From Dermatophilaceae bacterium (GTDB taxonomy: Bacteria; Actinomycetota; Actinomycetes; Actinomycetales; Dermatophilaceae): 57,446 nucleotides of DNA. Under the pieces are notes generated by a model that searched no databases, was not told the DNA's origin, and worked only from the letters and a program-made list of their open reading frames with translations. How positions within the stretch are numbered: the first letter of the stretch is position 1; each line of letters opens with the position of its first letter. This document shows, one piece after another, positions 12,364 to 40,158 of the stretch. The translations under genes and the position numbers were made by a program. The stretch covers positions 1 to 57,446 of the forward strand of contig DATCNE010000172.1 of assembly GCA_036565395.1 (NCBI GenBank). The letters are read 5' to 3'.

Positions 12364-13434
12364 ATGACCTCGCTGGAACCAAGCATCATGCCTGAAGCAA
12401 CCACCCAGACTGAGCGGCTCAAGACGTTGCGCGCCGTTCTTGAGGCGACCAACGAAGTGCTAAGCGCGGATGAACCAGCCGGAGCCAGGGTCTGGCCGTC
12501 AGGCTTCGTCCACTTGGACTCCATGCTGACCGGTGGGTTTCGTGCGGGTGAGCTGGTGCTTCTGGGCGGAGGGCCAGGTCTGGGCAAGACCACGTTTGCG
12601 CTGCAGGTGGCGCGCAACCTCGTCGTATCCGGCCACAGCGTCGTCTTCTTCTCGTTCGAGCATGACTACCACTCTTTGTTGGAGCGGCTGATTGTCATGG
12701 AGGCCGCTGAGATCGCGGGTCCGGTTGCGGTTCAGTTGCCTACCGTCCGTCAGGCGTTCCGCATGTCACAGGGTCCGGATCGGATGATGATGGAGGGACG
12801 GCTGTACGGCACTGAGGGAGGCGTCGAGGCGGTCGAGGCGCTGGAAGGCTACTGCGATCGGCTGTACCTGCACCGTTCCAGCGGAGCCCAAACCGACGTC
12901 GAGGTCATGAGATCGACCATCGAGGCGATCCGCGAGCGTACGGGAAGGACACCGTTCGTGGTGGTCGACTACCTCCAGAAGGTCAAGGCCGCCGCACCTC
13001 CGGGGGATCGGCGCCGGTCCGTCCAGTTGTCTGAGGAAGACCGGATCACCGTGGTCGTTGAGGGGCTCAAGGACATGTCGTTGGACCTGTCCGTCGCTGT
13101 TCTCGCCCTTGTCGCGGTCGACAAGTCTGGCCTGGCAGCCGCCTCGAGGACGCGAGTCCGGGATCTGCGCGGATCCTCAGCCCTCGCACATGAAGCCGAC
13201 ATCGTGCTCATCCTCAACCACAAGTTCGATGTGGTTGCCCGGCATCACCTGATGTTCAACACGGCCAACGCCGAGCAGTTCCACCACTGGGTGGTCATGA
13301 GCATCGAGAAGAACCGCAATGGCGTGGACAACGTGGACCTTGAGTTCCGGAAGCGCTTCGAGAACAGCAGGTTCGACACCGACGGTGGACGGGTCGAGGA
13401 GGAGCTGGTCGACGACCGAATCTTCCGCGAGTAG
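12364..13434 (+). CDS. stand-alone DnaB-C-terminal-domain-like (RecA-fold) ATPase, paralog 3
   Basis: GGGPGLGKTTFALQ, FSFEHDYHSL, FVVVDYLQKV, RDLRGSSALAHEADIVLILN and SIEKNRNGVDNVDLEF. Carries an ~11-aa insertion (PPGDRRRSVQLS) after Walker B. Confidence 0.8.
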   Translation: MTSLEPSIMPEATTQTERLKTLRAVLEATNEVLSADEPAGARVWPSGFVHLDSMLTGGFRAGELVLLGGGPGLGKTTFALQVARNLVVSGHSVVFFSFEHDYHSLLERLIVMEAAEIAGPVAVQLPTVRQAFRMSQGPDRMMMEGRLYGTEGGVEAVEALEGYCDRLYLHRSSGAQTDVEVMRSTIEAIRERTGRTPFVVVDYLQKVKAAAPPGDRRRSVQLSEEDRITVVVEGLKDMSLDLSVAVLALVAVDKSGLAAASRTRVRDLRGSSALAHEADIVLILNHKFDVVARHHLMFNTANAEQFHHWVVMSIEKNRNGVDNVDLEFRKRFENSRFDTDGGRVEEELVDDRIFRE

Positions 13435-20030: not shown

Positions 20031-20485
20031 TGGGTTGTTCCGTGCCACGGCTTCGAGCGGTCATCTTCGCCTGGGGTGGCACGCACATGGACGATCTGTT
20101 GCGGGAGAGGGGAATCCGCGTCGGTATCTTGTCCAACACGATCTGGCCGGGGGACTACCACCGTGGCGTGTTCGAACGGGACGGGGTCCTCGACCTGATT
20201 GACGCAGACGTCTATTCCAGCGAGATCGCCTGGACCAAGCCGCACCCGAGAGCGTTCCAGGCATCCGCTGAGGCGCTCGGGGTAGAGCCGTCGGAGGCTG
20301 CCTACGTGGGGGATCGGCCCTTCGAGGACGTTCACGGGAGCCAGTCGGCAGGGATGCGCGCCATCAGGGTGCCGCACTCGGAGAGCCCCGTGGCACAACA
20401 GGTTTCAGTGGACGTGACTCCCGATGGAGTCGCTCATGAGCTGCTCGACGTCCTCGACATCGTGGACGGTTGGCAGTCGAGGTGA
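20030..20485 (+). CDS. HAD-superfamily hydrolase-like protein, apparently decayed (cap region missing, motif I nucleophile lost)
   Basis: Motifs II-IV are present (ILSNT, WTKPHP, YVGDRPFEDVHG). Motif I reads VIFAWGGT and only ~10 residues separate it from motif II. 151 aa. Confidence 0.6.
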   Translation: MGCSVPRLRAVIFAWGGTHMDDLLRERGIRVGILSNTIWPGDYHRGVFERDGVLDLIDADVYSSEIAWTKPHPRAFQASAEALGVEPSEAAYVGDRPFEDVHGSQSAGMRAIRVPHSESPVAQQVSVDVTPDGVAHELLDVLDIVDGWQSR

Positions 20486-21264
20486 GCGACCCTTCGACCA
20501 CGACGCTCGTGTTGATGGTCCTGGCCGCAGTCTGCGCTGGGTGGATCGACGCGGTTGTCGGCGGTGGCGGGCTGATCCAGCTCCCGGCGTTGATGCTCGG
20601 CTTCCCGCTGGCGGCTCCGGTTCAGCTCCTGGCGACCAACAAGCTCAGCTCGATCTGTGGCACATCGGTGAGTGCGGCGACCTACTACCGCCGAGTCAGG
20701 CCGGACCTGAAGACCGCGATCCCGTTGGCACTGTTGGCGTTCTGCGGTTCACTGATCGGCGCCTCGCTCGTGTCGCACATCTCGCGAGCAGCCTTCAACC
20801 CGATCATCCTTGTGGTGCTGATCGGGGTGGGCACCTACACGTTGTTCACCCCGACACTCGGCCGCGCGACCGACCTGCGTTTCTCGGGCCGCCGACATGT
20901 GTTGGCCGCCACCGGGGTCGGCTTCCTGATTGGCATGTATGACGGAGCGCTCGGCCCCGGAACAGGCTCGTTCCTCGTGTTCGCCCTCGTCGGGTTGCTC
21001 GGCTATGCGTTCGTGGAGGCCAGCGCCAAGGCCAAGATCGCCAACGTTGCCACCAACCTGGCGGCACTGGTGGTCTTCATCCCGGCCGGAGCGGTGATGT
21101 GGAAGGTCGGCCTGCTCATGGGCCTGGGCAACCTCGCTGGCGGCTACATCGGGGCACGCACCGCGGTGGCAAAGGGTTCCGGGTTCATCCGTATCGTCCT
21201 CGTCGTCGTGGTCGGTGCGTTCATCGTCAAGATCGGTCTCGACGTCGTCGAGCAGTTCTCCTGA
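20482..21264 (+). CDS. TSUP family (TauE/SafE-like) anion exporter membrane protein
   Basis: About 8 TM segments with internal duplication, and the typical GGGGLIQLPALM N-terminal motif. GTG 20482 overlaps the HAD stop (GTGA); the track start is TTG 20470. Confidence 0.75.
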   Translation: MSDPSTTTLVLMVLAAVCAGWIDAVVGGGGLIQLPALMLGFPLAAPVQLLATNKLSSICGTSVSAATYYRRVRPDLKTAIPLALLAFCGSLIGASLVSHISRAAFNPIILVVLIGVGTYTLFTPTLGRATDLRFSGRRHVLAATGVGFLIGMYDGALGPGTGSFLVFALVGLLGYAFVEASAKAKIANVATNLAALVVFIPAGAVMWKVGLLMGLGNLAGGYIGARTAVAKGSGFIRIVLVVVVGAFIVKIGLDVVEQFS

Positions 21265-21269
21265 CCCGG

Positions 21270-23261
21270 CTACGTCAGGGCCGCCGCCAGCTCCGCAGCC
21301 GTGGTCACCGGGCGGTCACAGACAAAGCCACGGCAGACGTATGCCGCGGCACCGCCGGCCACCAGCGGCCGGTCGGCGAGGAGCGGAATCCCCGGCGAAT
21401 CAGGCTGTCCCTGAGCGATGACCAGTCCGGGGGAGGTGCTGCCACGCGCTATGCGGACCAGTTCTCGCGCATGCGGTCCGTCGCCGACGACGGCCACCTG
21501 AAGGGGGCCTGCGGCCATCGCTTCGGCCACGGCAAGGGTCCAGCCCGCAAAACGTGGGTCCTGAGCGGCAAGACGTGAGGCGGCGGTGACTGCGGCGTCG
21601 GCTGCTTCCCTGTGCCGGGTCGATCCGGTGAGCGCCGAGAAGGTCAGTAGCGCGCCCGCGAGTGCGGCGTGGCCGGACGGCTCGGCGTTGTCCGCTGCGC
21701 TGCGTGGTCTGGCGAAGAGCTCCTCGGCGTCGTCCGCGGTGTCGAAGAAACCGCCCTGACCATCGGCGAAGTGGGCCAGCGCCGTATCAAGGAGACTGCC
21801 TGCCGCGGTGAGCCACCGTGGCTCCCCGGTGGCTTGGTGCAGAGTGAGCAGGCCTTCGGCCAGGTTGCCGTGGTCATCGGCGACCCCCATCGCGGTTCCG
21901 ACCACGCCTGCGCGCGATGCCCGGCGCAGCCTGCCGTCAACCAGGTGGGCGTCCACGAGAAACTGCGCACACCCGCGGGCAGCCTCCACGTATCGTGAAT
22001 CCTCAAGCAGCACACCGGCTTCGCTCAGCGCAGCGATGGTCAGACCGTTCCAGCTCGTGACGACTTTGTCGTCACGAGCCGGCTGTGGCCGCAGATCGCG
22101 AGCGGCCCGCAAACGGTCGCGGACGATTTCCCACCAAGGCGCGTCAGCCGGATCCGTACGAAGCTGCAACGTGGACATTCCGTGTTCGAAAGTCCCTGTC
22201 TCGGTGACCTCGAGCAGCTGGGCGACCCGGCGACCGTCCTCCTCACCCAGCACGTCCACGAGCTGTTGCTCGGTCCAGGCGTAGGTCAGCCCCTCGACCC
22301 CGTCGGTGTCGGCATCGAGAGCTGACGCGAAGCCACCCTCGGCAGTCCCGAGATCGCGCAGCAGGAAGTCCGCCGTCTGACGCGCAATCCGTTCTGCCAG
22401 AGACACCTCTGCTGGGGAGCGCGATCGTGTCGCCCGCCACAGGTGAAGATAGACGCGCAACAGCTGGGCGTTGTCGTAGAGCATCTTCTCGAAGTGAGGC
22501 ACCACCCAGCCTGCGTCCACGGAGTAGCGCGCAAAGCCACCGGCCAGCTGGTCGTACATCCCGCCACGGGCCATCGCCTCACAGCTGCCGTCGGCCATCA
22601 GCAATGCGCGTTCTGAACCGGTGCGTGCCCAATGGCGCAACAAGAACTCCAGAACCATTGACGGCGGAAATTTCGGCGCCCGACCGAATCCGCCATGCTG
22701 CCAGTCATATCCGTCGGACAGCACCTCTTCGGCCTGCTGGAGCTCAACTGCCCCCAGCGGTGCACCCGCCCCGACTGTCGTGCCGGCGCGCAGAGCCTCG
22801 ACGATGTGTGAACCGCTGGCGACAACCTCCTCGCGTCGATCGCGCCACGCGTCGGAGACACCTGAGAGCAGCTGCAGGAATGAGGCCTTGGGGAAGTACG
22901 TGCCGCAGAAGAAGGGCTCTCCGGCCGGCGTGAGGAAGCAGGTCATGGGCCAGCCGCCATGACCGGTCATCGCGGTGGTCGCTGACATGTAGATCGCGTC
23001 GAGGTCAGGGCGTTCCTCGCGGTCGACCTTGATGGCCACGAAGTTGGCGTTGATGGCCCCAGCAACCTCGTCATCCTCGAACGACTCGTGCGCCATCACG
23101 TGACACCAGTGACAGGCTGCATACCCGATCGACAGCAGGATGGGTTTGCTGAGACGCTCCGCCTCAGCGAGAGCATCCGGCCCCCACTGCCACCAGTCGA
23201 CCGGATTGTCCTTGTGCTGCAACAGATACGGGCTCGTGGAGTCCGCGAGTCGGTTCGCCAT
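21270..23261 (-). CDS. thioredoxin-domain (DUF255/YyaL-like) protein with C-terminal alpha/alpha-barrel domain
   Basis: N-terminus [47 protein letters not shown]. About 660 aa. ATG 23261 follows GAGGAAGG; the track start is GTG 23270. Confidence 0.85.
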
Positions 23262-23297
23262 CAGGGTCACCCTTCCTCACTGGTCACAGTGATGTCG
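23097..23297. repeat. direct repeat copy A (5' end plus leader of the thioredoxin-domain gene)
   Basis: Ungapped alignment with 36229..36429 at an offset of 13132 nt. 167/174 identical over 23097..23270, then about two-thirds identity for ~27 more nt. Confidence 0.9.
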
Positions 23298-23663
23298 AAT
23301 GCTGACATCGTGACGCCTTTCTGGCTGATCCAGCAAACGTGCCGTCTCGTGACGGTATGTCCGGGCAGCAGTCAGCGGCGGTCGATTGCGCCACCGGGAC
23401 AGCTCCGGACCTTCCTCTCCATGAACCCAACAAAGACTGAAACCCAACCATTACGCGACGACCCGCGCCACACGTTCCTGAAGCCGCAGGAGGTCACGAG
23501 AAACCTGAGTTTGGGAAAGTCGTGTAGACCGAGCTCAGCGTTACCGGCCGGGGCGGACCCGGGACGCTGCGAGGCGTGAACCTGTCGTGACACCCAAACG
23601 ACAAGGCAGCCTTGACCTACGATGGCTGACTTGAGCGGTCCAGCGTCCTTGTTGAGGGGAACT

Positions 23664-24458
23664 GTGAAGAGATTCGGGAGTGTTGGACTGGCCGTAGGAG
23701 CAGTGCTGCTCGCTGTGCTGAGCGCATGCTCGTCGAGCACTTCTTCCAGCTCGTCAAATGGTTCGTCACCGTTTGCTTCGACGTATCCACCTCCGAAGGC
23801 TGGCACGACGTTTGACAAGGCGCTCAGCCCGGTGGTCGCTGCTCTGCCGTTCGTCAATCAGGACGGCCAGACGGTGACCTTGGACTCTCTCAAAGGCAAG
23901 ACCGTTGTCTTGACGGACTTCTTGACCCTGTGTCAAGAGGTCTGTCCGCTGACCACTGGGAACTATGAGCAGATCGCCGAGAAGGTGAAGATGGCGGAGG
24001 CCTCCAGCAAGATCACACTGCTTGAAGTCACCGTTGACCCGGCCAGGGATACCGCCGCCCGGTTGAAGGTCTACAGCAACAACCTTGGCGCTCCCGTGAA
24101 CTGGCAGTTCTGGACCGGTACTCCGGCAGATATCGCATCGCTGTGGAAAGAGATGGGGGTGTTCTACGAGAAGGTTCCCGAGGATCCGGGTGTCCATCCC
24201 GTCGACTGGTGGACCGGTAATGGTCTTACCTACGACGTAGACCATCAGGATGTGGTGTTCGTGCTGGGAACGGACGGGCACGAAAGATGGCTGATCCAGG
24301 GCAACCCGAACCTGCAAGGCGGGTCCGTTCCTGCGTCCTTGGCGGACTTCCTCAATGCGAGCGGTCAGGCGAACCTGGCCTCACCCGGGGTCCAGTCCTG
24401 GACTTCTCGTGACGTGACCGCCGCCCTCACCTACGTCACGGGACAGCAGATCGGCTGA
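23664..24458 (+). CDS. SCO1/SenC-family copper chaperone lipoprotein
   Basis: Signal/lipobox VLLAVLSACSS and thioredoxin-fold CxxxC motif TDFLTLCQEVCPLTTG. GTG 23664 follows GAGGGGA. Confidence 0.85.
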   Translation: MKRFGSVGLAVGAVLLAVLSACSSSTSSSSSNGSSPFASTYPPPKAGTTFDKALSPVVAALPFVNQDGQTVTLDSLKGKTVVLTDFLTLCQEVCPLTTGNYEQIAEKVKMAEASSKITLLEVTVDPARDTAARLKVYSNNLGAPVNWQFWTGTPADIASLWKEMGVFYEKVPEDPGVHPVDWWTGNGLTYDVDHQDVVFVLGTDGHERWLIQGNPNLQGGSVPASLADFLNASGQANLASPGVQSWTSRDVTAALTYVTGQQIG

Positions 24459-24511
24459 CGTCCGGTCCGGGCCGGTTGCGCCATGGTGGTGAGGCTCGTC
24501 TGAGCCGGCGT

Positions 24512-25090
24512 TCAGTTCTCGTGCAGCAGCTCGCTGACCAGGGTTTCGATCTCCGCACCTGTCACTGGCCCGATCACCCGCGCCGCCATCCGGCTGTGCC
24601 GATCCAGGATGAGGGTGCTGGGGATCCCCTTCTGGGGCAACAGGGGGAGCCGCCTGAGGAGAGCTCCGTCGGAATCCACCAGCTGTGGGTATGTCACACC
24701 CGCCGTGGTGACGAACTGGATCGCGGAGGTGGCGGTGTCCGTCTCGTCGATACCGACGAAGCGGACCTTCTGCCCCGCCAGCTTACGATCCAGGCCAGCA
24801 AGCACAGGGGACTCATCCCTGCATGGTGCGCACCACGACGCCCAGATGTTGAGGACGACAACGTTGCCTGCGAGGCCCTCCAGCGTGAAGTGCGTGCCCT
24901 CGAGCGTCGTACCGCTCAGGGTGGGGGCCAGGCGTCGATCACCTATAGCGATGCGGCTGACGCCGGGGGACTCGGACGTTCGATTGACGTCACCGGTCGA
25001 GGACGTGACGGCGCCGGCACAGGATGCCGAGAGTAGAGCTGCGACGGCAACCGCGGCCATTCGAACGCGAGAGCCTGATTGGTGAGGCAC
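24512..25090 (-). CDS. TlpA/ResA-like membrane-anchored thiol:disulfide oxidoreductase
   Basis: [16 protein letters not shown] (WCxxC) with an N-terminal anchor/lipobox LLSASCAG. Confidence 0.85.
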
Positions 25091-25250
25091 GCCGCTTCAC
25101 GGGCCTTTCTTGATACTGGATGGCCAGATGTGCCTTGCGTCTTCGTCAGCTGGGAATCCCGGTCGTTGGTTCAGGTTCATTGAGGAACAAGACGGACCAG
25201 TGTGCAAAGACCGCGCGCTCTGCGACAATCCTCGCAGGGATGGGAGTCAA

Positions 25251-26186
25251 ATGGTTGATATCGTGAATCGCGGTGTTGAAATTGGTCGCAATTCACCACA
25301 ATTCGTGTCAGTGGTGAAGGCCTACGTGGCCCTGACCAAGCCCCGGATCATCGAGCTTCTTCTGGTCACGACCGTGCCGGCCATGATGTTGGCGGCTCGG
25401 GGACTGCCCTCTGTTGGTCTGTTGACCGCCACCCTGCTTGGAGGCACGTTGGCCGCAGGAAGCGCCAACGCGCTGAACTGCTACTACGACCGCGACATCG
25501 ACGCCATCATGATGCGCACGAAGGATCGGCCGCTCAACCATTCCTTGATCAGTCCTCGGAGCGCCTTCGTCTTCGGTTTTGTCCTCGGTGGTCTGTCCTT
25601 GGTGCTCCTATGGCTGACGACCAACGATCTGAGCGCTGCCCTCGCGTTAGCGGCGATCGCCTTCTATGTGTTGGTCTACACAAGGCTGCTCAAACGCCGC
25701 ACATCACAGAACATCGTGTGGGGAGGCGCCGCGGGGTGCATGCCGGTGTTGATCGGCTGGACCGCGGTGACCGGCCGGCTGGCCTGGGCCCCAGTGGTGC
25801 TGTTCCTCGTCGTGTTCTTGTGGACGCCACCGCACTTCTGGGCGCTGGCGATGCAGTTCAAAGGGGATTATGCGGCGGCGCGCATCCCGATGCTGCCCGT
25901 CGTGGCGACGGAAGATGTGGTCACCGCCAGGATCGTCGTGTACTCCTGGGCGATGGTGGCCACCTCGCTGCTGCTATGGCCGGTGGCTCGAACCGGTCCG
26001 TTGTACGCGCTTGCCGCGGCGGTCTTGGGCGCGGTGTTCCTGAAGGAGGCGTACGCACTGCGGCGCAGGGTTCGACAAGGGCGATCGGCTCAGTCGGGTC
26101 GGCTCTTCCACCTGTCGATCACGTATCTGAGTCTTCTCTTTCTGGCGGTTGCCGCCGAGAATCTGGTGCCTTCCGTCTGGCGTTGA
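25251..26186 (+). CDS. ctaB: protoheme IX farnesyltransferase (heme O synthase)
   Basis: UbiA-family motifs [12 protein letters not shown] and [10 protein letters not shown]. About 9 TM segments. ATG 25251 is in frame with track ORF 25110. Confidence 0.9.
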
Positions 26187-26580
26187 CGGCCCTGTCGGGT
26201 GGGCCGCCGGGCGGGTCCGCGGCCTGGAGCTTGGCGAGGTGTTCCTGCCACGCAACCAGACCGGGGTCGGGTTGCGTGGCAGCCTGAGGGTCGCCTTTCA
26301 GGACGTGGCGGGGTGGGCTGTCGTGCAGCTGACGCCACCAGATGTAGGTGCCCAAGATTGCGAACAAGGGCCATTCGAAGGCGTAGACCCAAGCAACCTG
26401 CCGGCCGGCGAGGGCGCGGGTCAGCTCGAACCATCCGGCAAACAAGCACCCAGGCACCCCGATGACAAAGGGGATGTGCAGCCGCGCCATGGAGGACCAG
26501 CGCCCTGCTTCGTGGCCCGTGGTCGAAGATCCTTCGGCGAGGGGCACTCGCTCACCCGGGTCGGGGGCGGTATCAGGCAC
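26119..26580 (-). CDS. hypothetical small two-TM membrane protein
   Basis: Two hydrophobic helices ([16 protein letters not shown] and [18 protein letters not shown]). Its start overlaps the ctaG-like stop and its 3' end overlaps ctaB convergently by 68 nt. No recognisable family. Confidence 0.45.
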
Positions 26581-27442
26581 GGGACCCTCCTTGCAGCTCC
26601 GCGGCGTGGACGGCGTCGAGGCGTCGTCCCTTGCGTGCCTCGCTGAGCAACCACTCGTGAGCGGCCAGTGCTATCCATCCGGCATCGATGGCCATGCTGC
26701 CGGCCCACATGAGCGCACCACCCAGCTGCTGGTCGGCGAGAGGTCCGGGGCCGAAAGGTCGATGTACCTGTGCGTAGAAGGGGTACATCACGAAGGGGGA
26801 GGCATAGATGAAGAAGCCGGTCATGGTCTCGGGCACCATCATCAAGGACAGCGACACCATCCGAAGCGCCGGTGACAGTCGGCGGGGTGCGAGGTTCCCT
26901 GGCAGCAGCGGATAGAAGTAGAGCAGCCCGGCGCCCAGGTAGAGCGGGTGCTCCACGAACCGGTGCATGTTGGGGTGCTCGAGCGTGAACTCGTAGAACG
27001 GGGTGAAATGCGTCCCGACAATGACCAGGGCAAGCAGCAGCCACGTTGTCACCGGGTTGGCCAGGGCGTAGGCAAGCCGGCTTCTCAACACGGGAACCAC
27101 CCAGTACCGGCGACGTTGTGGCGAGCTCACCCGAAGAACCAGCAGCACCGGGGCTCCGAGCACCAACAGGGGCGCGCAGACCATGACCAGAACGATGTGC
27201 TGAACCATGTGGGCCCAGAAGAAGGTGTCATCGAAGGCGCCGATGGGGCCGAGGAGGCTCACCCAGAGCAGGGCTATTCCGGACTGAAAACAGGCACTCT
27301 TGCGACCGGACCATGGTGTCTCAGGGTGGCGTGCGCTTACGGTCCGCGCACCCCAGGCGTACAGCACCGCCGCCATGCCCAAGCCGGCAGCAAGGGCAGG
27401 ATCGAAAGTCCACGTGCCGAGGAAGCTCAACCAGTGCCCCAC
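26573..27442 (-). CDS. ctaG: cytochrome c oxidase assembly factor, Bacillus-type CtaG (Caa3_CtaG family) membrane protein
   Basis: FDPALAAGLGMAAVLYAWG and HMVQHIVLVMVCAPLLVLGAP with about 7 TM segments. Start set at GTG 27442 because 27443..27559 is A/T-rich and looks noncoding; the track start is 27559. Confidence 0.75.
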   Translation of the reverse strand: MGHWLSFLGTWTFDPALAAGLGMAAVLYAWGARTVSARHPETPWSGRKSACFQSGIALLWVSLLGPIGAFDDTFFWAHMVQHIVLVMVCAPLLVLGAPVLLVLRVSSPQRRRYWVVPVLRSRLAYALANPVTTWLLLALVIVGTHFTPFYEFTLEHPNMHRFVEHPLYLGAGLLYFYPLLPGNLAPRRLSPALRMVSLSLMMVPETMTGFFIYASPFVMYPFYAQVHRPFGPGPLADQQLGGALMWAGSMAIDAGWIALAAHEWLLSEARKGRRLDAVHAAELQGGSRA

Positions 27443-27657
27443 GCTGACAAATGTTAGCAGCGCGCGACGTGGGCAATAAGAAAAATAGTTGATTCGGGAT
27501 GAAGGGGATATTTCGGTCGATGCCTCGGAGAGACATTCACGTTTCACTTCCGAAGACACGTTCCGATACTGCCCTGCTTGACGCCACGTGTGACTTAGGT
27601 CACCCTGAGCCTACCGACCATCGCGCGTCGGGATACTTAGGGGCCGGAGGGCGGCGA

Positions 27658-28350
27658 ATGGGCACGACACGCGTTTATCTGAAGGCGTCGGCGGCCGTTG
27701 CGTTGGGCGTCCTCGTGGTTGTCCTGGCCGGCACCGCGCTTGCTCGTGCCGGCACCACGCCCGGGTTGCTCAAGGCCACCGTCAAGGGGACGGCACAGAC
27801 GCCGGTGGGCGTGCTGCCGCATGCGTTCATGGAGCTTGCCACCTACCCGGACAGCATGGCCGGAGAGCACGGTCCCGATGGAGGCAGCAAGCCCGACTGG
27901 GTCAGCTATGGCCCAACCACCAACTTCAGTGCGCCTGCCCATTCCTTGGTGACCGTCACCATCAAGCAGTATGACGGCGGCGAGAAGATCACGAATCCCT
28001 GGTTCGCCAAGGTGCACGGCACGGTCGACGGGACCATGACGGTCGACGGGAAGACCGCGACGGAAGCGAACCCGGATGCCATCGGGCACACCTTCACCAT
28101 TCACGCTCTGCCGACGAACCAGGACCCGTTGTTCGTCAGCGTCCCGTTGCCCGCGGTGCCGGAGGACGTCAAGCCCGCCTCGGGTTCGGACTACCCGCCC
28201 CCGATCGTCGTGACCTTCTCGTTCGTAACCGGGGGCCCGGGCGAGTACGTGTGGAACTGCGAATACCCGTGTGGGGACGGTACCTACGCCAAGTTCGGCG
28301 GGCCCATGTCGACCCGGGGCTACATGGCCGGGACCTTCACCGTCACTTGA
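27658..28350 (+). CDS. secreted/anchored cupredoxin-like protein with a partial CuA-like Cys loop
   Basis: ATG 27658 follows GGAGGGCGG. N-terminal signal anchor, then HTFTIH...VWNCEYPCGDGTYAKFGGPMSTRGYMAGTFTV at the C-terminus. Sits immediately upstream of coxB. Confidence 0.55.
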   Translation: MGTTRVYLKASAAVALGVLVVVLAGTALARAGTTPGLLKATVKGTAQTPVGVLPHAFMELATYPDSMAGEHGPDGGSKPDWVSYGPTTNFSAPAHSLVTVTIKQYDGGEKITNPWFAKVHGTVDGTMTVDGKTATEANPDAIGHTFTIHALPTNQDPLFVSVPLPAVPEDVKPASGSDYPPPIVVTFSFVTGGPGEYVWNCEYPCGDGTYAKFGGPMSTRGYMAGTFTVT

Positions 28351-28363
28351 GCCGCAACCCTAG

Positions 28364-29167
28364 ATGGTACGCACCGAAAGGCATCCCCACATGGCCCAGA
28401 CCGAGTCGGTGACAGCCCAGATACGCACGTGGTGGCAGCGGGTCGAGATCAAGCGGATTGTCTGGATCTGGCTGGGCATCACGGTGGTTCTGGTGATTTT
28501 CGCCCTCATGGTGCCCGCACGTGTGATGGGTCCCGCCGCTTCACCGAGCATGCGTGCAGTCGAGAGCACCATGACCATCTTCTCGGTTGCGGCGGCTCCG
28601 GTGATGGCTCTCGTGCTGGCGGTCGCGGTCTACAGCCTGATCGTCTGGCGCTCACGGGGCTCGGAGCCGCCCATTGGCGACGGCCCGCCTATCAGGGGCA
28701 ACGGGCTGGCGACGGCAACGTGGATTGTGGCCTCCTCCCTCCTGACCATGTTTGTGCTGATCTGGGGTTTGGGCGAGATGCAGAGCCTCTCGGCCGAGGC
28801 TTCGGGGCCCAACGCGATGGTCGTGAACGTCACCGGCCAGCAATGGGTGTGGACCTTCAGCTATCCGCAGAACGGCAACGTCGAGTCGGACCAGCTGTAT
28901 CTGCCGGTAAACCGTCCGGTGGTCTTCCACGTCACGAGCAAGGACGTCGTCCACTCCTTCTGGGTCGTTGAGCTGGGGATCAAGGTCGACGCCAACCCCG
29001 GTGAGATGACCAAGTCCGGAGTGATCCCGGACAAGAGGGGCACCTACGTCGTGCGCTGCGCCGAGCTGTGTGGGCTGCTGCACGCGCACATGGAGACCCA
29101 GGCTCACGTTGTGAACAGCGCCGATTTCTCGGCGTGGATCACCGCCCAGGGAGGTCGGGCGTCGTGA
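28364..29167 (+). CDS. ctaC: heme-copper oxidase subunit II (CuA; no cytochrome c domain)
   Basis: VVFHVTSKDVVHSFWV and CuA loop RCAELCGLLHAHM. Confidence 0.9.
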   Translation: MVRTERHPHMAQTESVTAQIRTWWQRVEIKRIVWIWLGITVVLVIFALMVPARVMGPAASPSMRAVESTMTIFSVAAAPVMALVLAVAVYSLIVWRSRGSEPPIGDGPPIRGNGLATATWIVASSLLTMFVLIWGLGEMQSLSAEASGPNAMVVNVTGQQWVWTFSYPQNGNVESDQLYLPVNRPVVFHVTSKDVVHSFWVVELGIKVDANPGEMTKSGVIPDKRGTYVVRCAELCGLLHAHMETQAHVVNSADFSAWITAQGGRAS

Positions 29168-29195
29168 GGACGATCGGGCCACGAAGGGAAGCACG

Positions 29196-31145
29196 ATGAG
29201 CGCCATACATGCGGAGCGCGTGACAGGCCTTCCGGCAGCGGGGGGCGGCCTGATGCGCCGCCTGAACATCGTCACCGCGCTCGGAGGTGGCTTGGCGCTC
29301 GCCCTCGTGGGGTGGTCCATCTCGCGCCACTTCATGTTGGAGAACGACTTCGGCCCCGACCAGGTCACGGTCATCACGATGGTCTGCTGGGCGATCGGCT
29401 TCATGGTGGGCATCGGCGCGTTCAACGGGCCGATCGGCTGGCTGCGTGGCCACGACCTGACCCCCGAGGACGAGCTCTTCCTCGCGGGAAAGGACCAGGG
29501 GATACGTCGTTACTTCCGGTTCACCACCGACCACAAGGTCATCGGCATCCAGTACCTGGTACTGACCATGGTCCTGTTAGGCCTCGGCGGCACCATGGCC
29601 ATGCTCATCCGCACCAACCTGATCAGCCCGAACTCAAACTTTCTCAACCCGCAGGAGTACAACGCGATCGTCGGCCTGCACGGCCTGATCATGATCATCG
29701 CGACGATCATCATGGTGACCGGCCCATTCGGGAACTTCATCATGCCGTTGATGATCGGCGCCCGGGACATGGCATTCCCGCGCCTGAACGCCCTGAGCCT
29801 CTGGTTGATCGTCGCCGCTGTTCCGGTCTTCTTGTCAGGCGCATTCCTGGGAGGGATCCCGACCGGCTGGGTCGGCTATGCCCCACTGGCCGACCAGGCG
29901 CCGCCCGGAATGGACGCGTACATGATGACGATCATCATCTTCGCGATCTCCAGCGCCATGGCCGGGGCGAACATCGTCACGACCGTGTTGACCATGCGGG
30001 CTCGTGGTATGACCTGGAACCGGACACCGATCTTCGTCTACGGGTTGGTCGCCAGCGTCGGCCTTGCCATCCCCGCGTTCCCCATGTTCATGGCGTCGCA
30101 GGTCATGCTGGGTCTTGACCGCACCATGGGCGGGCAGTTCTACGTCGCCTCCGGTGGTGGGAGCCCCTGGCTCTACGAAAACCTGTTCTGGCTGATGGGC
30201 CACCCCGAGGTCTACGTCATCTTGATCCCGGCCATAGCCGCCCTGATGGAGCTGACCGCGGTGTTCTCCCGCAAGCCGTTGTTCAGCTTCAACGCCGCGG
30301 TGCTCGGCATTGTCGGGATCTCCATCCTCAGCGTCATGGTGTGGGCGCACCACATGTACGCCTCCGGCTGGGCACCGAACCTCAACGGGGCCTTCATGCT
30401 GACCACGGAGATGATCTCCATACCGACCGGCATGCTCTTCCTTGTCATCCTGGGCACGATCTGGCGCGGACGGATCTGGACCCGACTGCCCATGATGGCG
30501 ACCTACGCGATGCTGTGGAACTTCATCATCGGCGGCATAACCGGCCTGTACCTGTCCGATGTCCCGCTGGACTACGCCCTTCACGGGTCCATGTTCGTCA
30601 CGGCCCACTTCCACTACACCCTCATGGGTGCCGGGTTGACCGGTGCGATTGGCGCCTTGGCGTTCTGGTTCCCGAAGATGACCGGCCGGATGCTCAAAGA
30701 GCGATTTGGTTTCATCTCGTTCTGGCTGGTGCAGATCGGCTTCAACGTCACTTTTCTGGGGATGTTTGCGGTGGGCCTTGCGGGCCAGCCGCGCCGGGTC
30801 TATACCTACGCCAACCTGCTGACGACGGGCAACTTCGTCTCCACCATCGGCGCCTACGTCATCGGGATCGGAATGCTCTTCCTGCTGTACGCCGTGATCA
30901 GCTCCTGGCGGCACGGTGTGCTGGCGCCGTCCAACCCGTGGGGCAGCAAGACGTTGGAGTGGACGGTGCCCAACCCCATCCCGCTGGAGAACTTCGAGGT
31001 GCTGCCGGTTGTGACGTCCGATGCCTACGGCTACGGCGAGGAACAGTTCGCACCCATCCAGGAGCCGGAACGGCAGCCTGAGCTCGAACCGGTGAGCGTC
31101 GGCAGCAGTGCTGACGAGGAGAGCGCCGAAGGAGCGAGGCTATGA
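29196..31145 (+). CDS. ctaD: heme-copper oxidase subunit I, atypical (N-terminal 2-TM extension; variant K-pathway and Mg-site residues)
   Basis: FTTDHKVIGIQY, LHGLIMI, RDMAFPRLN, GHPEVYVILIP, WAHHMY, AHFHYTL and GQPRRV. 649 aa. Confidence 0.9.
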   Translation: MSAIHAERVTGLPAAGGGLMRRLNIVTALGGGLALALVGWSISRHFMLENDFGPDQVTVITMVCWAIGFMVGIGAFNGPIGWLRGHDLTPEDELFLAGKDQGIRRYFRFTTDHKVIGIQYLVLTMVLLGLGGTMAMLIRTNLISPNSNFLNPQEYNAIVGLHGLIMIIATIIMVTGPFGNFIMPLMIGARDMAFPRLNALSLWLIVAAVPVFLSGAFLGGIPTGWVGYAPLADQAPPGMDAYMMTIIIFAISSAMAGANIVTTVLTMRARGMTWNRTPIFVYGLVASVGLAIPAFPMFMASQVMLGLDRTMGGQFYVASGGGSPWLYENLFWLMGHPEVYVILIPAIAALMELTAVFSRKPLFSFNAAVLGIVGISILSVMVWAHHMYASGWAPNLNGAFMLTTEMISIPTGMLFLVILGTIWRGRIWTRLPMMATYAMLWNFIIGGITGLYLSDVPLDYALHGSMFVTAHFHYTLMGAGLTGAIGALAFWFPKMTGRMLKERFGFISFWLVQIGFNVTFLGMFAVGLAGQPRRVYTYANLLTTGNFVSTIGAYVIGIGMLFLLYAVISSWRHGVLAPSNPWGSKTLEWTVPNPIPLENFEVLPVVTSDAYGYGEEQFAPIQEPERQPELEPVSVGSSADEESAEGARL

Positions 31146-31762
31146 GCGCCACGACAGCTCCAGGCACGCCGATTCATCGCGAGGACGTCGACACGGTCGG
31201 CCGGCGTTGGCGGATGGGGGTCGGGTTCATCATCGTTGCGGACGCGTCCTTTGTCGCCGCGATGCTGTTCAGCTACCGCTACCTGCGGGGCCTCAACACC
31301 GAGGGCGCGTGGGTGCCGCACGGTTCTGCGACCGCACCCATCTGGAGCTCGTGGCTGCTGGCAGCCGGGCTCGTCCTCAGCGCGGTGGTCTTCCGCTGGG
31401 GAGAGAGAGGTATCCGCGGCGGAGACAGTGCTCCGCTCGTCCGGGCGAGCGCAGTGGGCGTGGTCCTGCTCGTTGCCGTCGCGGTCGGACAGGTGGTTCA
31501 GATCGCCAGCTTCACCTTCGCGATCGCCGCGAGCGCCTACGCGTCCACGATGTATCTCCTGACGGGGGCCAACCTCTTCCACGTGGTTCTGACTCTGTTC
31601 CTGGGTGTGTCGATGTGGAACCGGGGTCGGCTGGGCAGGTACACGGCCACTGAGAACTGGCAGGTCGGGATCGTCTCGCTCTGGTGGGCCTGGATCGCGC
31701 TCGCCGCAGTACTCAGCGCCCTCACCACGTCCTTCATCGCCAGCCCCACCATCGGCGGCTGA
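31142..31762 (+). CDS. ctaE: heme-copper oxidase subunit III
   Basis: 206 aa, 5 TM, with a subunit-III-like helix pattern (LFHVVLTLFLGVSMW). ATGA overlap with subunit I. Confidence 0.75.
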   Translation: MSATTAPGTPIHREDVDTVGRRWRMGVGFIIVADASFVAAMLFSYRYLRGLNTEGAWVPHGSATAPIWSSWLLAAGLVLSAVVFRWGERGIRGGDSAPLVRASAVGVVLLVAVAVGQVVQIASFTFAIAASAYASTMYLLTGANLFHVVLTLFLGVSMWNRGRLGRYTATENWQVGIVSLWWAWIALAAVLSALTTSFIASPTIGG

Positions 31763-31799
31763 CACCTCGGGGTTTCGTCCGCGCGTTAGCCAGCGGTGA

Positions 31800-32987
31800 T
31801 CAGTTCTGCGACACCATCTGGTTCCCGACGGTTGTGACCCAGCCGGGCAGCGCGACGTGAGAGAACGACGTACCGTCGCCGCGCACTGCCCACAGGATGG
31901 CCCCCTTCGCCGTGGTCCCGGTTGCGAAACCTGCCCCGCTGCCGGTGGGGGCCAGGTCGGTGACTCCAAGAGGGGCCGCACCGTGGTCCGTCCACGTCAC
32001 GCCGGCGTTCGCGGAGGAGTAGACGTGGTCACCGCTCGCTGCGCCGCCGAGCATCCACACGTCCTGGCCGTGGCAACCCCACGCGGGTGAACCGTGCGGA
32101 ACCGTCAAGGGAGCGCCGGTTGCCCAGGTGGCTCCGCCGTCCACGCTGGCGGCGATGGACATGGTCCCTCGCGCTCGCACCACCGGCAGCACCCATGCCT
32201 GGTCGCCTCCGCAGGGTGTCAACGCCGCGACGGCGTCCGGGGCCAGCCCGGCCACGGTGGCCCACCTCCGGCCGAAGTCGTTGGTCGTGAACGCCACCGG
32301 CGATCCGGCAGGTCCGTGACCGGTCAGCCAGCCGCGACCGCCCGCACCCCACCTGAGGCCGTCGAGATGAAGGTGCCCGCCAGGCACCAGCCGGGAGGCG
32401 TCGGTCAGCACGCTCCAGCCATGCTCCCCCTTCTCAACAACGGTTCCGCCGGCCGCGTGCAATACGGCCGTGACACCCCGCGGACCCAGTGCGACCGACT
32501 GCCGGCCGACGGTGAGAGCGCCGGGCAGCTGATCGGGACTCCAGGTCGTGCCGGAGTTCGGGCTGCGCAGGAGGGGCGAGACGACGAGCTGGTCGAACGG
32601 CAGCGCGCCCACCACGAGCTCGCGGGAGCTCGCGGCCGTGGTCAGCCCCCCACCCGTGGGCACAGCGATAGGGGTGATGTTGGTGACGTGCCGCCAACCA
32701 TCCCCGGTGCGCAGCAGCAGGAACGCGGCCCCGCTGGGCCACACGGCATCGCCGGAGCGGCTGTCCTGCATCAGCAGCCATGGTGACGCGGCGCGCAACG
32801 GCGACCCGGTGGAGGTGGCAAGCCGCTGGGCTCGGTCAGTGGCGGACGAGGGGGACACCGGTGCGGACGGGGACGGCGTGCAGGCCGACAACAACAGAAG
32901 CAGGCTGGCGAGCGCGAGTGTGCGTGCCCGATACTGTCCGCGGTGACCTCGGGGACGGTGAGGGCAGTCCACCCAGGCCGGGGTCAT
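31800..32987 (-). CDS. BNR/Asp-box repeat beta-propeller lipoprotein (Ycf48/sialidase-fold-like)
   Basis: Lipobox LLLLSACT and repeated SxxxGxTW-type boxes (NSGTTWSP, DGGATWAT, NAGVTWTD, NDFGRRWAT). ATGA overlap with the upstream gene. Confidence 0.65.
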   Translation of the reverse strand: MTPAWVDCPHRPRGHRGQYRARTLALASLLLLLSACTPSPSAPVSPSSATDRAQRLATSTGSPLRAASPWLLMQDSRSGDAVWPSGAAFLLLRTGDGWRHVTNITPIAVPTGGGLTTAASSRELVVGALPFDQLVVSPLLRSPNSGTTWSPDQLPGALTVGRQSVALGPRGVTAVLHAAGGTVVEKGEHGWSVLTDASRLVPGGHLHLDGLRWGAGGRGWLTGHGPAGSPVAFTTNDFGRRWATVAGLAPDAVAALTPCGGDQAWVLPVVRARGTMSIAASVDGGATWATGAPLTVPHGSPAWGCHGQDVWMLGGAASGDHVYSSANAGVTWTDHGAAPLGVTDLAPTGSGAGFATGTTAKGAILWAVRGDGTSFSHVALPGWVTTVGNQMVSQN

Positions 32988-34726
32988 GCCAGCAGCCTCC
33001 GGATCTCTTGCTCGATCAGAGTTGAGTAGCCCTGGGACAGTTCCGGGTTCGCTCCGTCGCCGAGGTACGCCGCCGTCGTCCCGTCGGGTGAGATGAAGTA
33101 GATGCCCTCACCATGGGCGATCATGCCGACCGCTGGGACCTGCACGACGATGCCGTATGCCGCGAGCACGTCCCCCAGCTGCGCGGCCGGTCCGACCAGG
33201 AAATGCCAGTTGGGCAGGTCACCCAGGTCATGGGATCTGGTGAAGGCCTGGACATCCTCGACCCGGTCGAAGACCGGGTTGGTGTCGATCGCCACGATCT
33301 GCACCTTCTGAGCCAGCGGACCCAGGGCGCGTTCTGCAGCCGCGATCTGGTTGGCGATGATCGGGCAGTCGTCACTGCAGACAGGGTCGAGGAAGGTCAC
33401 CAGCGTGAGGGTTCCGCGCAGCCCTGACATCGACACCGTGGTTCCCGTCTGGTCCGTCAGCGTGAACCCCGGAGCCGGCCGGTGGGGTAGGGCGATGACG
33501 CCGCCACTGCTGTCGGCGGTGACCGCTGCCGTGTCGGGGGGGCCGAGTAGCGTGCCCAGCAGGAGTACCGGCACCACCAGTACCGCGCCAACCCCGACCG
33601 TGGTGAGAGCTGTGGTGAGGCCGGCTCGCGCTGGCAGGCTGAGCGCGACGGCCGGGTGCGCTGTGCCCTGCTCGCGCACCGCCGCGCGTGACGGCCACCG
33701 TGGCCAGCCTGCCGCGAGCACAACGGCCAGCGGCAGAGCAGTGTTGGGGTCGGTTGCCAGCCCACCCAACACCCCGAAGTCCTGGGCCAGCCACCAGGTG
33801 GCGAGGCACATGGTGATCCCGGCAGCGACGTAGGTGGACGCTGACGAGACGAGCAAACCGATGCCGACCATGACGAGAATGATCACGATCGTGGCATTGA
33901 TCGCGACAGGGTGGCTCTGAGCCAGATGCGACGCACCGGTGATCGGCGCGAGAAAGAAGTTCGGCTGGCTGACGTGGGCGCCCATCTCGAACGGCGCGGA
34001 GAGCCCTCGGCCTGACCAGTTGTCCTCCCACGGCAGGGCCTGCAGCATGGCTGCGGCGAGCATCCAGACCCCTACCGCTCGCCGGGCCAGCCTCTGGGCG
34101 TTGCCGCTGTTCCATCGATCCCACCGGAGCAGCAGCAGGGCGGCAGCCAGGGCGTAGACCAGGGCGGCACCAGGCGCACCGCTGAGCCACGACGCGTTCG
34201 TTTCCAGCAGACCACCGAGGAACTCACCGCCGACCCACACCACGGCGCTCCAGAGCATGCTGGCCCACAGTGCTGATCTGGCGATCAGCCCCTGACCCCC
34301 GAGCAGTAGGAGCAGCCCGAGACCGAGCTGGATGTACACCGTGACCGCATCGGCCGCCACCGGGTGGTGCGTCCAGGTTTGGGCGAACGGTTGGACGAGA
34401 TCGACGAGCCAGCCAGGGCCAGAGCTGATTCCCGGCGCCAACGTGTGGGGGACAAAGCCAGCCGGCATGAATCGTTGTGCCTGCAGCAGCCCGTCCACCA
34501 GCCACAACAGACCGAGACCGATCCGCAGGAACCGCCGGGCTGGTGGCTCGACCTCCCGAACCGTTCGTGAAGGCATCAGCGGTGGTATCCCCTGCGCTGC
34601 CCGGCGCCGTTGCCACCACCACGCCACGCCACCGGTCAGCAGCCCGGCGCCGACCAACCACAGCAGGATGCGCAGGAGTATTGCAGCCAGCTCAGGGAAC
34701 ATGTCCGTGAGCACGTCGCCCGACAT
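32984..34726 (-). CDS. fusion of a polytopic membrane domain (~400 aa, unknown family) with a C-terminal SCO1/SenC thioredoxin-like domain
   Basis: About 10 hydrophobic helices, then FTLTDQTGTTVSMSGLRGTLTLVTFLDPVCSDDCPII (CxxxCP). Confidence 0.7.
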   Translation of the reverse strand: MSGDVLTDMFPELAAILLRILLWLVGAGLLTGGVAWWWQRRRAAQGIPPLMPSRTVREVEPPARRFLRIGLGLLWLVDGLLQAQRFMPAGFVPHTLAPGISSGPGWLVDLVQPFAQTWTHHPVAADAVTVYIQLGLGLLLLLGGQGLIARSALWASMLWSAVVWVGGEFLGGLLETNASWLSGAPGAALVYALAAALLLLRWDRWNSGNAQRLARRAVGVWMLAAAMLQALPWEDNWSGRGLSAPFEMGAHVSQPNFFLAPITGASHLAQSHPVAINATIVIILVMVGIGLLVSSASTYVAAGITMCLATWWLAQDFGVLGGLATDPNTALPLAVVLAAGWPRWPSRAAVREQGTAHPAVALSLPARAGLTTALTTVGVGAVLVVPVLLLGTLLGPPDTAAVTADSSGGVIALPHRPAPGFTLTDQTGTTVSMSGLRGTLTLVTFLDPVCSDDCPIIANQIAAAERALGPLAQKVQIVAIDTNPVFDRVEDVQAFTRSHDLGDLPNWHFLVGPAAQLGDVLAAYGIVVQVPAVGMIAHGEGIYFISPDGTTAAYLGDGANPELSQGYSTLIEQEIRRLLA

Positions 34727-34958
34727 CAGCGCCCGCAGTGACGCCGGACGTGGCGCCGGCTCGGCCTCCGAGTGACGACTACATCGTGCACCGGTCGCCT
34801 CCGTCTCAGCCGATTGCTTGGCCCGTTCGGCACCACGCCTGCCACGTGGCGCTGGGAATGGTGCGCAATACTAACGCGCCACACGTGACCCAAGGGCCCG
34901 TTTCTCCTACTGTCTCTAGCATCGGATCTTGTTGGTCTGGCCGCTCGAAGGAGGCTGG

Positions 34959-35732
34959 GTGCCCGTTTCCGTCTCATCCTGGGACCTGGTGATGTCCGGC
35001 CCACTGGTGCTGGCGGCGCCCGTAGCCGTAGCTGCCGGCGCGCTCTCCTTCTTCTCCCCATGCTGCTTGCCGCTCTTGCCGGGCTACCTGTCGTTCTTGA
35101 CCGGCAGCCTCGGGGCGGGTGTCGTGCGCTCGGGGCCGGTCGGGAGGAGCCGCAGCACCATGGTCGGGGCAACTCTGTTCGTGCTCGGTTTCGCCGCAGT
35201 GTTCACCAGCTATGGAGCCGCATTCGGTGGGCTGGGCGCTTTGCTACAGTCGCATCAGCAGACACTGACACGGGTCCTCGGGGGCTTCACGATCGTCCTG
35301 GGTCTGCTGTTCGCCGGGGCGCTGGCGAGGTTTTCGTGGGCCAACCGCAGCCTGAAGCTGCGTTTCCGCCCGCCGACGGGTGTGGCCGGCGCGCCGCTGG
35401 TGGGCATCCTGTTCGGACTGGGTTGGACCCCCTGCCTCGGTCCGACCCTGGCTGCGGTCCTGACCTTGGCTACGACGACCGGTGGCGCGTGGCGCGGCGC
35501 CGCCTTGGCATTCGTGTATAGCCTGGGCCTCGGCATCCCGTTCCTGGCGGCCGCCGCATCGGCGGATCGAGCAATGGCCGCCTTCGACTGGCCGCGCCGA
35601 CACGCCGCGGCCATCATGCGACTCGGCGGGCTGATGCTCGTGCTCGTCGGCGTGTTACAGGTCTCGGGTGCATGGGGCGCGATGGTCGCCCATATGCAGG
35701 GCCTGATCAGCGGGTTCCAGCTCCTGCTCTGA
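34959..35732 (+). CDS. ccdA: cytochrome c biogenesis protein CcdA (DsbD-family thiol-reductant transporter)
   Basis: [16 protein letters not shown] and [13 protein letters not shown] 34959 lies 4 nt after GAAGGAGG; the track start is TTG 34929. Confidence 0.85.
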
Positions 35733-36228
35733 GGACATAGCAAACCGGCGCATGGCCCGTGGGACGAGCCGCATGGCTGTGAGAGACCGCGACGAGCGGA
35801 CTCGGTGTTGACCGTATCGAGCCGTTGACTATTGGGGAGGAGGCTTGCTATGAGATCACGTCGCTGTCCGCAGTATCTGCTTCAATGTCGACATAGTTCA
35901 AGAAAGATGGAGTGAAGGCGTGACAGATGTCCCTGCGACCCTTGTTGAGAAGCGGTTATGTGCGTCGCGCAAACCCGCGGGCGCAAGTTCACATGGGCCT
36001 TGCACTAACACGCGCATTTGCTTTCGCCGCGGCAATCGTGAGGCCCAGTTCCCAAGTGACACGGTTCGTCTCTGCATTCAGCGCCAGCAAACAAGACCGG
36101 TCACCAAGCGTGGACGACTCGCCGCAGCGAAGGAACATCCGGCACAATGCGGTACGACCCCTAACTCTCTGACCTGCACGGATGCACTTAGCGGTCCGTG
36201 ATATCCGATTTCTGCGCCTATGGAAAGG

Positions 36229-36396
36229 CACGTGGCACCAGTGACAGGCTGCATACCCGATCGACAGCAGGATGGGTTTGCTGAGATGCTCCGCCTCCGC
36301 GAGAGCATCCGGCCCCCACTGCCACCAGTCGACCGGATTGTCCTTGTGCTGCAACAGGTACGGGCTCGTGGAGTCCGCGAGTCGGTTCACCATCAC
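36229..36396 (-). pseudogene. 5' fragment (~56 codons) of a thioredoxin-domain (DUF255) gene, paralogous to 21270..23261
   Basis: [55 protein letters not shown] differs from the intact gene at only 2 residues. It then diverges into unrelated, basic, A/T-richer sequence right after a CACGTG hexamer. Confidence 0.85.
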
Positions 36397-36429
36397 GGTC
36401 GCCTCTCCTGATCGGTTTCAGTGGTGTCG
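36229..36429. repeat. direct repeat copy B
   Basis: See copy A (23097..23297). Same orientation, 13132 nt apart. Confidence 0.9.
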
Positions 36430-36540
36430 CACCATCCCACAAAAGGCCGTGGTTGGCTTCGCTCCCGATCGATATAGTCGCGCAATGACCTTGTTCACTG
36501 CGAGAGGTTTCGAGATGGTTGTGGATCTTGCCTCGACGCA

Positions 36541-40079: not shown

Positions 40080-40158
40080 ACCTCGTTCTGCCTCTGGCCG
40101 GAGGCCCGACGTGGCTCCCTGGTCATTCGCAGCGCGGGCGCTCTGGCAGTCTGGCTCC

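Follow-up and report, generated by a model that had tools for sequence, protein, structure and literature searches.

A cassette of oxidase genes at the CxxC codons of a DUF255 gene and its relatives in soil actinobacteria

A 57,446-nt stretch from a Dermatophilaceae bacterium (assembly GCA_036565395.1, contig DATCNE010000172.1), hereafter the window, contains a DUF255/YyaL thioredoxin-domain gene whose 5´ end recurs in the same orientation 13 kb away. Its genes mark it as part of the chromosomal core (dxr, rseP, ispG, proS ... rimP, nusA, infB, ribF) of a Dermatophilaceae/Phycicoccus-like organism. The DNA that separates the two gene starts was very probably inserted into the DUF255 gene as one member of a family of cassettes that use the same insertion point. 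These cassettes are a previously undescribed family, which stacks at the same codon in many soil actinobacteria. A first-pass annotation made from the window alone had described the repeat and a displaced gene start; the widespread family, the fixed target codon, the tandem arrays and a conserved noncoding end go beyond it. A literature search gave no account of DUF255 as the target of an island, the nearest match being the genome description of an E. coli outbreak strain.

The cassettes show that closely related actinobacteria of soil and permafrost trade an accessory oxidase module, and some relatives modules for sugar catabolism and regulation, inside the otherwise rigid core region dxr-ispG-proS ... 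rimP-nusA-infB. A DUF255 N-terminus that ends at CHWCHV is a new and easily searched landmark of islands in Actinomycetota, and recombinase-less cassettes that share a conserved noncoding end offer a concrete system for how islands lacking an integrase move.

Two starts of one gene

The intact DUF255 gene occupies positions 21270–23270 on the minus strand and covers positions 2–162 of the 163 in the PF03190 profile (E 1.8e-69). It encodes 666 amino acids from GTG 23270, although ATG 23261 is the likelier start. A repeat search and pairwise alignment of the window reveal a direct repeat between 23097–23297 (copy A) and 36229–36429 (copy B), both on the minus strand, with 186 of 201 nt identical (93%) and the offset of 13132 given by the first-pass annotation. 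It is the one long direct repeat with two copies in the window, and its longest identical run is 59 nt. The copies differ by 15 mismatches, five of which fall in the 165 coding nt from ATG 23261; counted from GTG 23270, there are seven in 174 nt, as reported before, and eight in the leader. The homology of both copies ends directly 3´ of TGGTG(C/T)CACGTG.

Copy A, which comprises a 36-nt leader and the first 55 codons up to CACGTG, keeps the gene whole. Copy B has the corresponding leader and 55 codons but is a stub. The open reading frame (ORF) that contains it (35989–36396, minus strand) runs on into the DNA beyond CACGTG and matches only positions 2–55 of the profile, in keeping with the earlier description of a stub whose homology halts after CACGTG. 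The DNA beyond the stub had been called A/T-richer, and the 496 nt between ccdA and the stub indeed have 58% G+C, compared with 66% in the window. On its other side, copy B adjoins a 111-nt intergenic flank (36430–36540) followed by a divergent gene for a hydrolase-ABC fusion protein (36541–39117, plus strand).

Repeats may mislead assemblers, and the contig is of metagenome type, so that an origin without any mobility has to be considered, through duplication or rearrangement in place or through an error of assembly. However, both inner junctions are crossed with 0 differences by Logan contigs from independent soil runs (X1 spans 23217–24358; X2 and X3 span 35709–36258), which excludes the assembly artefact that the first-pass annotation had allowed for. 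Moreover, the same architecture is present in many unrelated assemblies and lineages, and an empty site exists (L057–L061, below). An origin by artefact or local duplication is therefore extremely improbable.

The empty site identifies the native start

A DUF255 protein 88% identical to that of the window (P0128) is encoded on eight contigs, and five loci (L057–L061) were compared. In these five loci, the DUF255 gene is divergent from the hydrolase-ABC gene at a distance of 215 nt and the neighbourhood is kept, with neither oxidase genes nor a stub. The ancestral state is thus a DUF255 gene that lies head-to-head with the hydrolase-ABC gene. The intergenic DNA of the five loci consists of the window flank 36430–36540 and a leader of the copy B type, and continues straight on into ...CACGTGATGGCGCAC; the leader reads without break into the gene sequence ...CACGTGATGGCGCACGAG. 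The alignment of the 122-kb contig L057 to the window spans the hydrolase-ABC gene and breaks off precisely at 36229. A relative at about 90% identity (L040) has the flank, the B-type leader and the stub.

The two leader types differ in where they occur. The B-type leader is found only beside the hydrolase-ABC flank (window, L040, L057), while the A-type leader with its upstream DNA is found with other cargo or as inner stubs (L014, L046, L048). The empty site with a B-type leader and the alignment end at 36229 indicate that copy B is the displaced native start and that copy A was imported; the insertion point lies directly 3´ of CACGTG. The same roles had been assigned to the two copies in the first-pass annotation, which proposed to look for relatives with the DUF255 gene directly divergent from the hydrolase-ABC gene and no oxidase module; L057–L061 are such relatives.

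A 13,132-bp piece thus entered the DUF255 gene directly after ...TGG TGC CAC GTG, the codons of the CxxC motif (approximately codons 55–58). In the direction of the gene, this piece starts with a noncoding tail (377 nt) and a spacer (119 nt), continues with accessory heme-copper oxidase and assembly genes (12 kb) and closes with its own upstream DNA, a leader and the first 55 codons of a DUF255 gene. The native start remains as a stub on its own leader, while the imported start is fused to the gene body and leaves the gene intact. Repeated entry at the intact copy generates arrays of the form stub-tail-cargo-stub-tail-cargo-...-intact gene.

A family of cassettes at one codon

A search with the stub protein recovered DUF255 N-termini whose homology stops at CHWCHV or no more than one codon away from it, with unrelated sequence beyond. 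They form at least 20 protein clusters from different samples (P0001–P0007, P0014, P0022, P0024–P0026, P0028, P0041, P0044, P0062, P0086, P0104, P0108 and P0117), and the stubs adjoin different neighbours on different contigs. In a Nocardioides metagenome-assembled genome (L041), two stubs of the same orientation, 78% identical, lie 7,009 nt apart with a complete cassette between them. Contig L048 has the order tail, stub, A-type upstream DNA, 10 kb of cargo, tail, stub. The stubs of L048 and L046 bear a leader and upstream DNA of the window's copy A type (99% identity to copy A over 253 nt in L046). An imported 5´ end was therefore itself later displaced by a further insertion. Such A-type stubs are the signature expected of repeated entry at the intact copy. 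A comparison of L046 with soil runs gave several leader and upstream variants and no clean second form of the array.

The cargo varies between cassettes. That of L048 is devoted to sugar catabolism (an FGGY kinase, LacI, a sugar ABC transporter, two dehydrogenases and a TIM-barrel enzyme), that of L041 comprises an S8 protease with regulators as well as TetR, a monooxygenase and a dehydrogenase, and further cassettes carry NrtR-NUDIX, YibE/F and a phosphoesterase. Close relatives of the window also differ at this locus: L014, whose hydrolase-ABC protein is 96% identical, has no oxidase genes, while L001 (95%) has at least the ccdA end of the oxidase module, the rest lying beyond the contig.

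Some stubs are decaying. The CxxC motif is changed to CPWCH in L045/L052 and P0003, and L052 has a 1-nt deletion inside CxxC, which fits non-functional remnants. Several contigs end just past a stub, and stubs seem to break metagenome assemblies. In L042 (1218–2824) and L043 (from about 6190 to the end), the first cargo genes encode an HTH_3 protein and a 282-amino-acid protein without a Pfam match; judged by eye, this pair resembles a toxin-antitoxin pair of the AbiEi/AbiEii type.

The conserved noncoding tail

In the lineage of the window, the cassette end that follows the stub is a conserved, family-specific noncoding tail of 377 nt (35852–36228, minus strand), which reads from CACGTG to ...GTGATCTC. 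Homologues with 68–95% identity were found in 14 contigs, and their similarity to the window halts sharply at ...GTGATCTC (35852). The first 158 nt contain no indel in 12 sequences. A coding function is ruled out, since the variable sites of this part lack codon periodicity (29/27/25) and no reading frame is open in all members. The tail of L047 is still conserved although its stub has decayed. The spacer between cargo and tail (35733–35851) is not conserved in other cassettes.

RNAalifold predicts a closing helix between tail positions 11–26 and 132–149 with compensatory changes, as in L037, where GCG has become ATT and its partner CGC has become AAT. In this helix, 93% of the cells pair, compared with 35–49% when the partners are slid. 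The covariation score of the tail exceeds those of all 500 shuffles, with a structure that was derived from the same sequences, and many G-U pairs point to the sense strand of the gene. Covariation thus gives moderate support to a predicted fold of the tail. The folding energies of single sequences are no better than those of shuffles (z ~0), and a stable RNA is not claimed on the basis of energy.

An Rfam scan of 35600–36600 with E values up to 10 yielded only one match at chance level, ARAGORN detected no tRNA or tmRNA gene in the window, and conserved repeated 7-mers or 8-mers of the kind seen in clt/TraB-type transfer sites were sought and not found. The tail has no match in plasmid or phage collections, and the tail motif has 0 matches in IMG/VR. 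One metagenome match (L054) was dropped as an AT-rich chance match. The metatranscriptome runs cover only the 5´ coding part, with reads from intact genes of other organisms, and neither support nor oppose transcription of the tail. Inside the tail, a weak terminator-like hairpin (window 36100–36118, minus strand) is followed by the invariant TTGTTTGCTGG; this hairpin might stop transcription from the stranded native promoter.

Cassettes without a recombinase

No recombinase was identified when every cargo ORF and the 57-kb window as a whole were scanned against Pfam and NCBIfam, in line with the earlier remark that no integrase or transposase is visible. Neither a recombinase nor a transposase was found in the three complete cassettes (window, L041, L048) or in the partial ones examined, and no mobility genes are present in L041 (two cassettes), L042–L044, L048, L051 and L052. 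The lack of a recombinase is hence the rule across the family, rather than a local loss of mobility genes, one of the options left by the first-pass annotation.

A local loss is also what a further alternative would require, namely an integrative and conjugative element (ICE), an integrative and mobilizable element (IME) or a prophage that was once autonomous, entered at the 5´ end of the gene and later lost its integrase and transfer genes at this locus only. The attachment-like (att-like) direct repeats, the empty site in a relative and the repaired target gene give the locus this classical look. The sole hint of a mobility gene in any cassette is a 76-amino-acid fragment in L042 (6577–6807, minus strand, cut by the contig end), which by eye is a candidate AlpA/excisionase-type (Xis-like) DNA-binding protein. 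However, mobility genes are missing from all other complete and partial cassettes examined, and the phage, plasmid and IMG/VR collections contain no autonomous relative, which makes a decayed element of this kind quite unlikely. The only match of the DUF255 N-terminus profile in IMG/VR is an intact Bacteroidota-like gene at a contig end, and tblastn searches of plasmids for stubs returned only intact genes.

Because the cassettes lack a recombinase, they would have to be moved by an enzyme encoded elsewhere in the genome or by homologous recombination. We infer that they are non-autonomous and depend on a site-specific recombinase acting in trans or on host homologous recombination. The first of these, with the conserved tail as part of the recombinase site, has in our estimate close to an even chance of being correct, slightly ahead of the second, and a smaller share of the probability goes to other routes. 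In its favour are a cut point that stays the same although the 5´ ends of the lineages share only 70–78% identity, and a tail that is selectively conserved and ends sharply.

Spread of the same insertion by homologous recombination alone, with the cut point after CACGTG inherited from the first structure, is a serious possibility that nevertheless falls short of an even chance. In one route, a donor with the order stub-tail-cargo-upstream-5´ end-gene body would recombine through crossovers in the first 165–200 nt and in the gene body or beyond; in another, a circle excised between the repeats would re-enter by a single Campbell-type crossover. This model is supported by the lack of a recombinase in all three complete cassettes, and the 201-nt repeat, which includes the leader, is the product that insertion-duplication with a 5´ fragment would give. 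Copy A, copy B and the L014 copy are equidistant, with 4–5 differences per 165 nt and mixed variants. The promoter-side end of the cassette, the A-type upstream DNA (23298–23496, minus strand), is common to other cassettes and has ragged limits: it extends to 23349 in L046, to 23373 in L014 and to 23463 in L048, and L052 covers 23409–23496. Furthermore, the DUF255-TauE segment (23299–20100) is 86.3% identical to L057, whereas its flanks are 92.6–93.8% identical, with the change at an indel at about 20090–20100. The lower identity would agree with a gene body that was imported together with the cassette, and the change near 20100 may mark the end of a recombination tract; however, the 86% segment may simply reflect faster-evolving genes. 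Homologous recombination alone leaves unexplained the sharp end of the 377-nt tail, its 158 indel-free nt and its survival past a decayed stub in L047. It also has to account for a shared cut point among lineages with only about 70–75% DNA identity in the 5´ ends and for the two stubs of L041 at 78% identity, which are a poor substrate for homologous recombination.

Several observations weigh against the picture of an inserted cassette from a family with a fixed target point. Short metagenome assemblies make up most of the supporting contigs. The analysis found neither a recombinase nor an excised circle or attP-type molecule, and no autonomous relative with an integrase was seen among about 15 cassettes and cassette ends or in the phage, plasmid and IMG/VR collections, complete genomes not having been surveyed. 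No joint that skips the island is present among the joints listed for four soil runs, where contigs show presence and not absence. By our reading, the tail sequence after the junction (CCTTTCC or ACTTTC) is unlike the native sequence after the junction (ATGGCGCAC), whereas the paired cores of a tyrosine recombinase should be alike. The tail of Nocardioides-type cassettes is a different one, about 150 nt long with GATTCCGGGGCTTCGTGTATCAC, in which CGTGTATCAC is repeated in three of the four tails examined; it has in common with the window-type tail only a GGTCAG motif about 45–55 nt in and is otherwise not detectably related. The Nocardioides-type tails went undetected by a covariance model built on the initial 158 nt of the window-type tail, so that a single tail family across orders is not established.

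Three relatives of the window also carry no stub at all (L001, L014 and L018; hydrolase-ABC proteins 94–96% identical). All three break at most 9 nt from the start of the copy B leader, at window positions 36421–36429 (between 186 and 187 in L001, 8680 and 8681 in L014, and 390 and 391 in L018). In L001, the ccdA stop and 8 nt are joined directly to ...GCGACACCAC, and window 35741–36420 is absent. In L014, 4.8 kb of other DNA, which includes a gene for a cell-wall-binding protein, lies between the flank and the A-type upstream DNA. In L018, the 3´ end of an unrelated ORF is at the breakpoint; its product looks by eye like an S58-type peptidase but has no Pfam match. The insertion model has a single explanation for these relatives, that they would be secondary deletions or replacements. 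The deletion endpoints may be constrained in that the useless transcription unit of the stub had to be shed without loss of the hydrolase-ABC promoter.

The junction of a 5´ end with a tail in L046 and L048 could come from either an array or a circle, and the junction between ...TGGTGCCACGTG and ATGGCGCAC is, by eye only, unlike an actinobacterial dif site, the target at which IMEX elements use the XerCD recombinase of the host.

A more far-reaching reading, which we consider rather doubtful, is that Actinomycetota possess a chromosomal cassette platform without a cassette-borne recombinase. The CxxC codons of the DUF255 gene would then be the place where multi-gene metabolic modules are taken up, stacked and swapped, and a structured noncoding tail of about 380 nt, folded on the sense strand as RNA or single-stranded DNA, would serve the machinery involved as its recognition or processing module.

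Comparison with known systems

The closest known kinds of element are cis-mobilizable islands with tandem accretion, islands with an SXT-like replacement of a 5´ end, and island arrays at ssrA or tRNA genes. Cis-mobilizable elements (CIMEs) are islands with attL/attR-type repeats and without integration or transfer genes, and entry beside an intact target end builds tandem arrays (PMC5704250). As in the CIMEs related to ICESt1/ICESt3, the cassette has target-derived direct repeats of the attL/attR type at both ends (201 nt), no integration and transfer genes accompany these att-like repeats, and tandem accretion at the same site is seen in L048 and L041. CIMEs are decayed relatives of ICEs and IMEs that have a cognate integrase; for the cassettes, no autonomous relative or integrase is known, and the approximately 15 cassettes and ends and the three collections named above, which leave complete genomes unsurveyed, contain none with a cognate integrase at this site. 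In contrast to CIMEs, the cassettes target a protein gene in its 5´ part rather than a 3´ end or a tRNA gene, and they have a 201-nt repeat and a 377-nt conserved noncoding end.

Integrative elements of the SXT/R391 group enter the 5´ end of prfC; Hochhut and Waldor are said to have found in 1999 that the element supplies a new promoter and 5´ coding sequence and that the gene stays functional. Like SXT/R391, the cassettes enter the 5´ end of a conserved protein gene and provide a new start. SXT encodes a tyrosine integrase and conjugation machinery, neither of which the cassettes carry, and has only a short core in common with its target.

The ssrA islands of Dehalococcoides form tandem arrays, and the tycheposons of Prochlorococcus are arrays of cargo islands at one gene. 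Both resemble the cassettes in forming arrays at one single-copy gene, with each unit leaving a partial target end. However, they carry integrases and duplicate about 20 bp or the 3´ end of a tRNA or tmRNA gene, which the cassettes do not. In one such case, the island that bears the vinyl chloride reductase is located at ssrA, a single-copy gene (PMC3146451).

Integron cassettes are likewise exchangeable units at a fixed point, with a foldable noncoding boundary and no recombinase in the unit. Of the integron features considered (IntI, attI, Pc and attC hairpins), the window contains no integrase and the tail shows no demonstrable attC-like features. The present cassettes have no IntI/attI platform, their units are multi-gene operons of 7–13 kb with their own promoters, and entry takes place at the array end beside the intact gene, duplicating 200 nt of that gene. 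The family differs from the known kinds in its target at the CxxC codons of DUF255, the 201-nt duplication that includes promoter and leader, the long noncoding end and the lack of a known autonomous relative. A new kind of mechanism has a modest probability.

Cargo of the window's cassette

From the copy A side, the cargo begins with a Sco1/SenC copper chaperone (23622–24458, plus strand; PF02630) and a ResA/TlpA-like thiol-disulfide oxidoreductase (24512–25090, minus strand), whose NCBIfam matches are all under the curated cut-offs and whose G+C content at third codon positions (GC3) of 0.78 favours this strand. The heme o synthase CtaB (25110–26186, plus strand) scores 431 bits against a cut-off of 246 for NF003349 and is followed by the CtaG assembly factor (26573–27559, minus strand; PF09678). 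A non-canonical heme-copper oxidase is encoded at 28364–31762 on the plus strand by CoxB (28364–29167), CtaD (29196–31145) and CtaE (31142–31762). CtaD reaches 425 bits with the actinobacterial aa3 model, far under its cut-off of 880, which indicates that the oxidase is an accessory rather than the housekeeping enzyme. A 580-amino-acid protein with a C-terminal Sco/AhpC-type domain (32984–34726, minus strand) precedes the last cargo gene, which encodes a CcdA/DsbD-type membrane thiol transporter (34929–35732, plus strand; PF02683) and is also present in L001.

A comparison of composition between the cargo and its flanks had been suggested. The G+C content (65.4%, compared with 66.5% and 68.0% in the flanks) and GC3 are alike in cargo and flanks, and composition is therefore uninformative on the origin.

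Variation around the locus

Differences between the window and its relatives extend beyond the cassette. In L057 (9963–13523, compared with window 20030–20485 and 20100–23299), a gene for a 244-amino-acid HAD hydrolase occupies the place where the window has a 151-amino-acid ORF, and about 290 nt of L057 have no counterpart in the window. On the other side, L057 contains an extra S15-type hydrolase and an acyltransferase_3 gene (4185–6275, compared with window 40080–40111) between the ABC-2 permease and the cation-efflux gene, while L047 lacks the whole block of hydrolase-ABC, ABC-2 and CDF genes beside its stub. The extra genes of L057 and the missing block of L047 indicate that the block adjoining the target gene is itself variable.

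Farther away, the window contains three tandem paralogues of about 350 amino acids with DnaB_C/KaiC-like ATPase domains (10107–13434), which are spaced by about 1.1 kb and share 63–78% DNA identity; at least two copies are present in the stretch of L057 compared. The N-terminal part of infB (45923–46351) contains short tandem repeats rich in proline and glycine.

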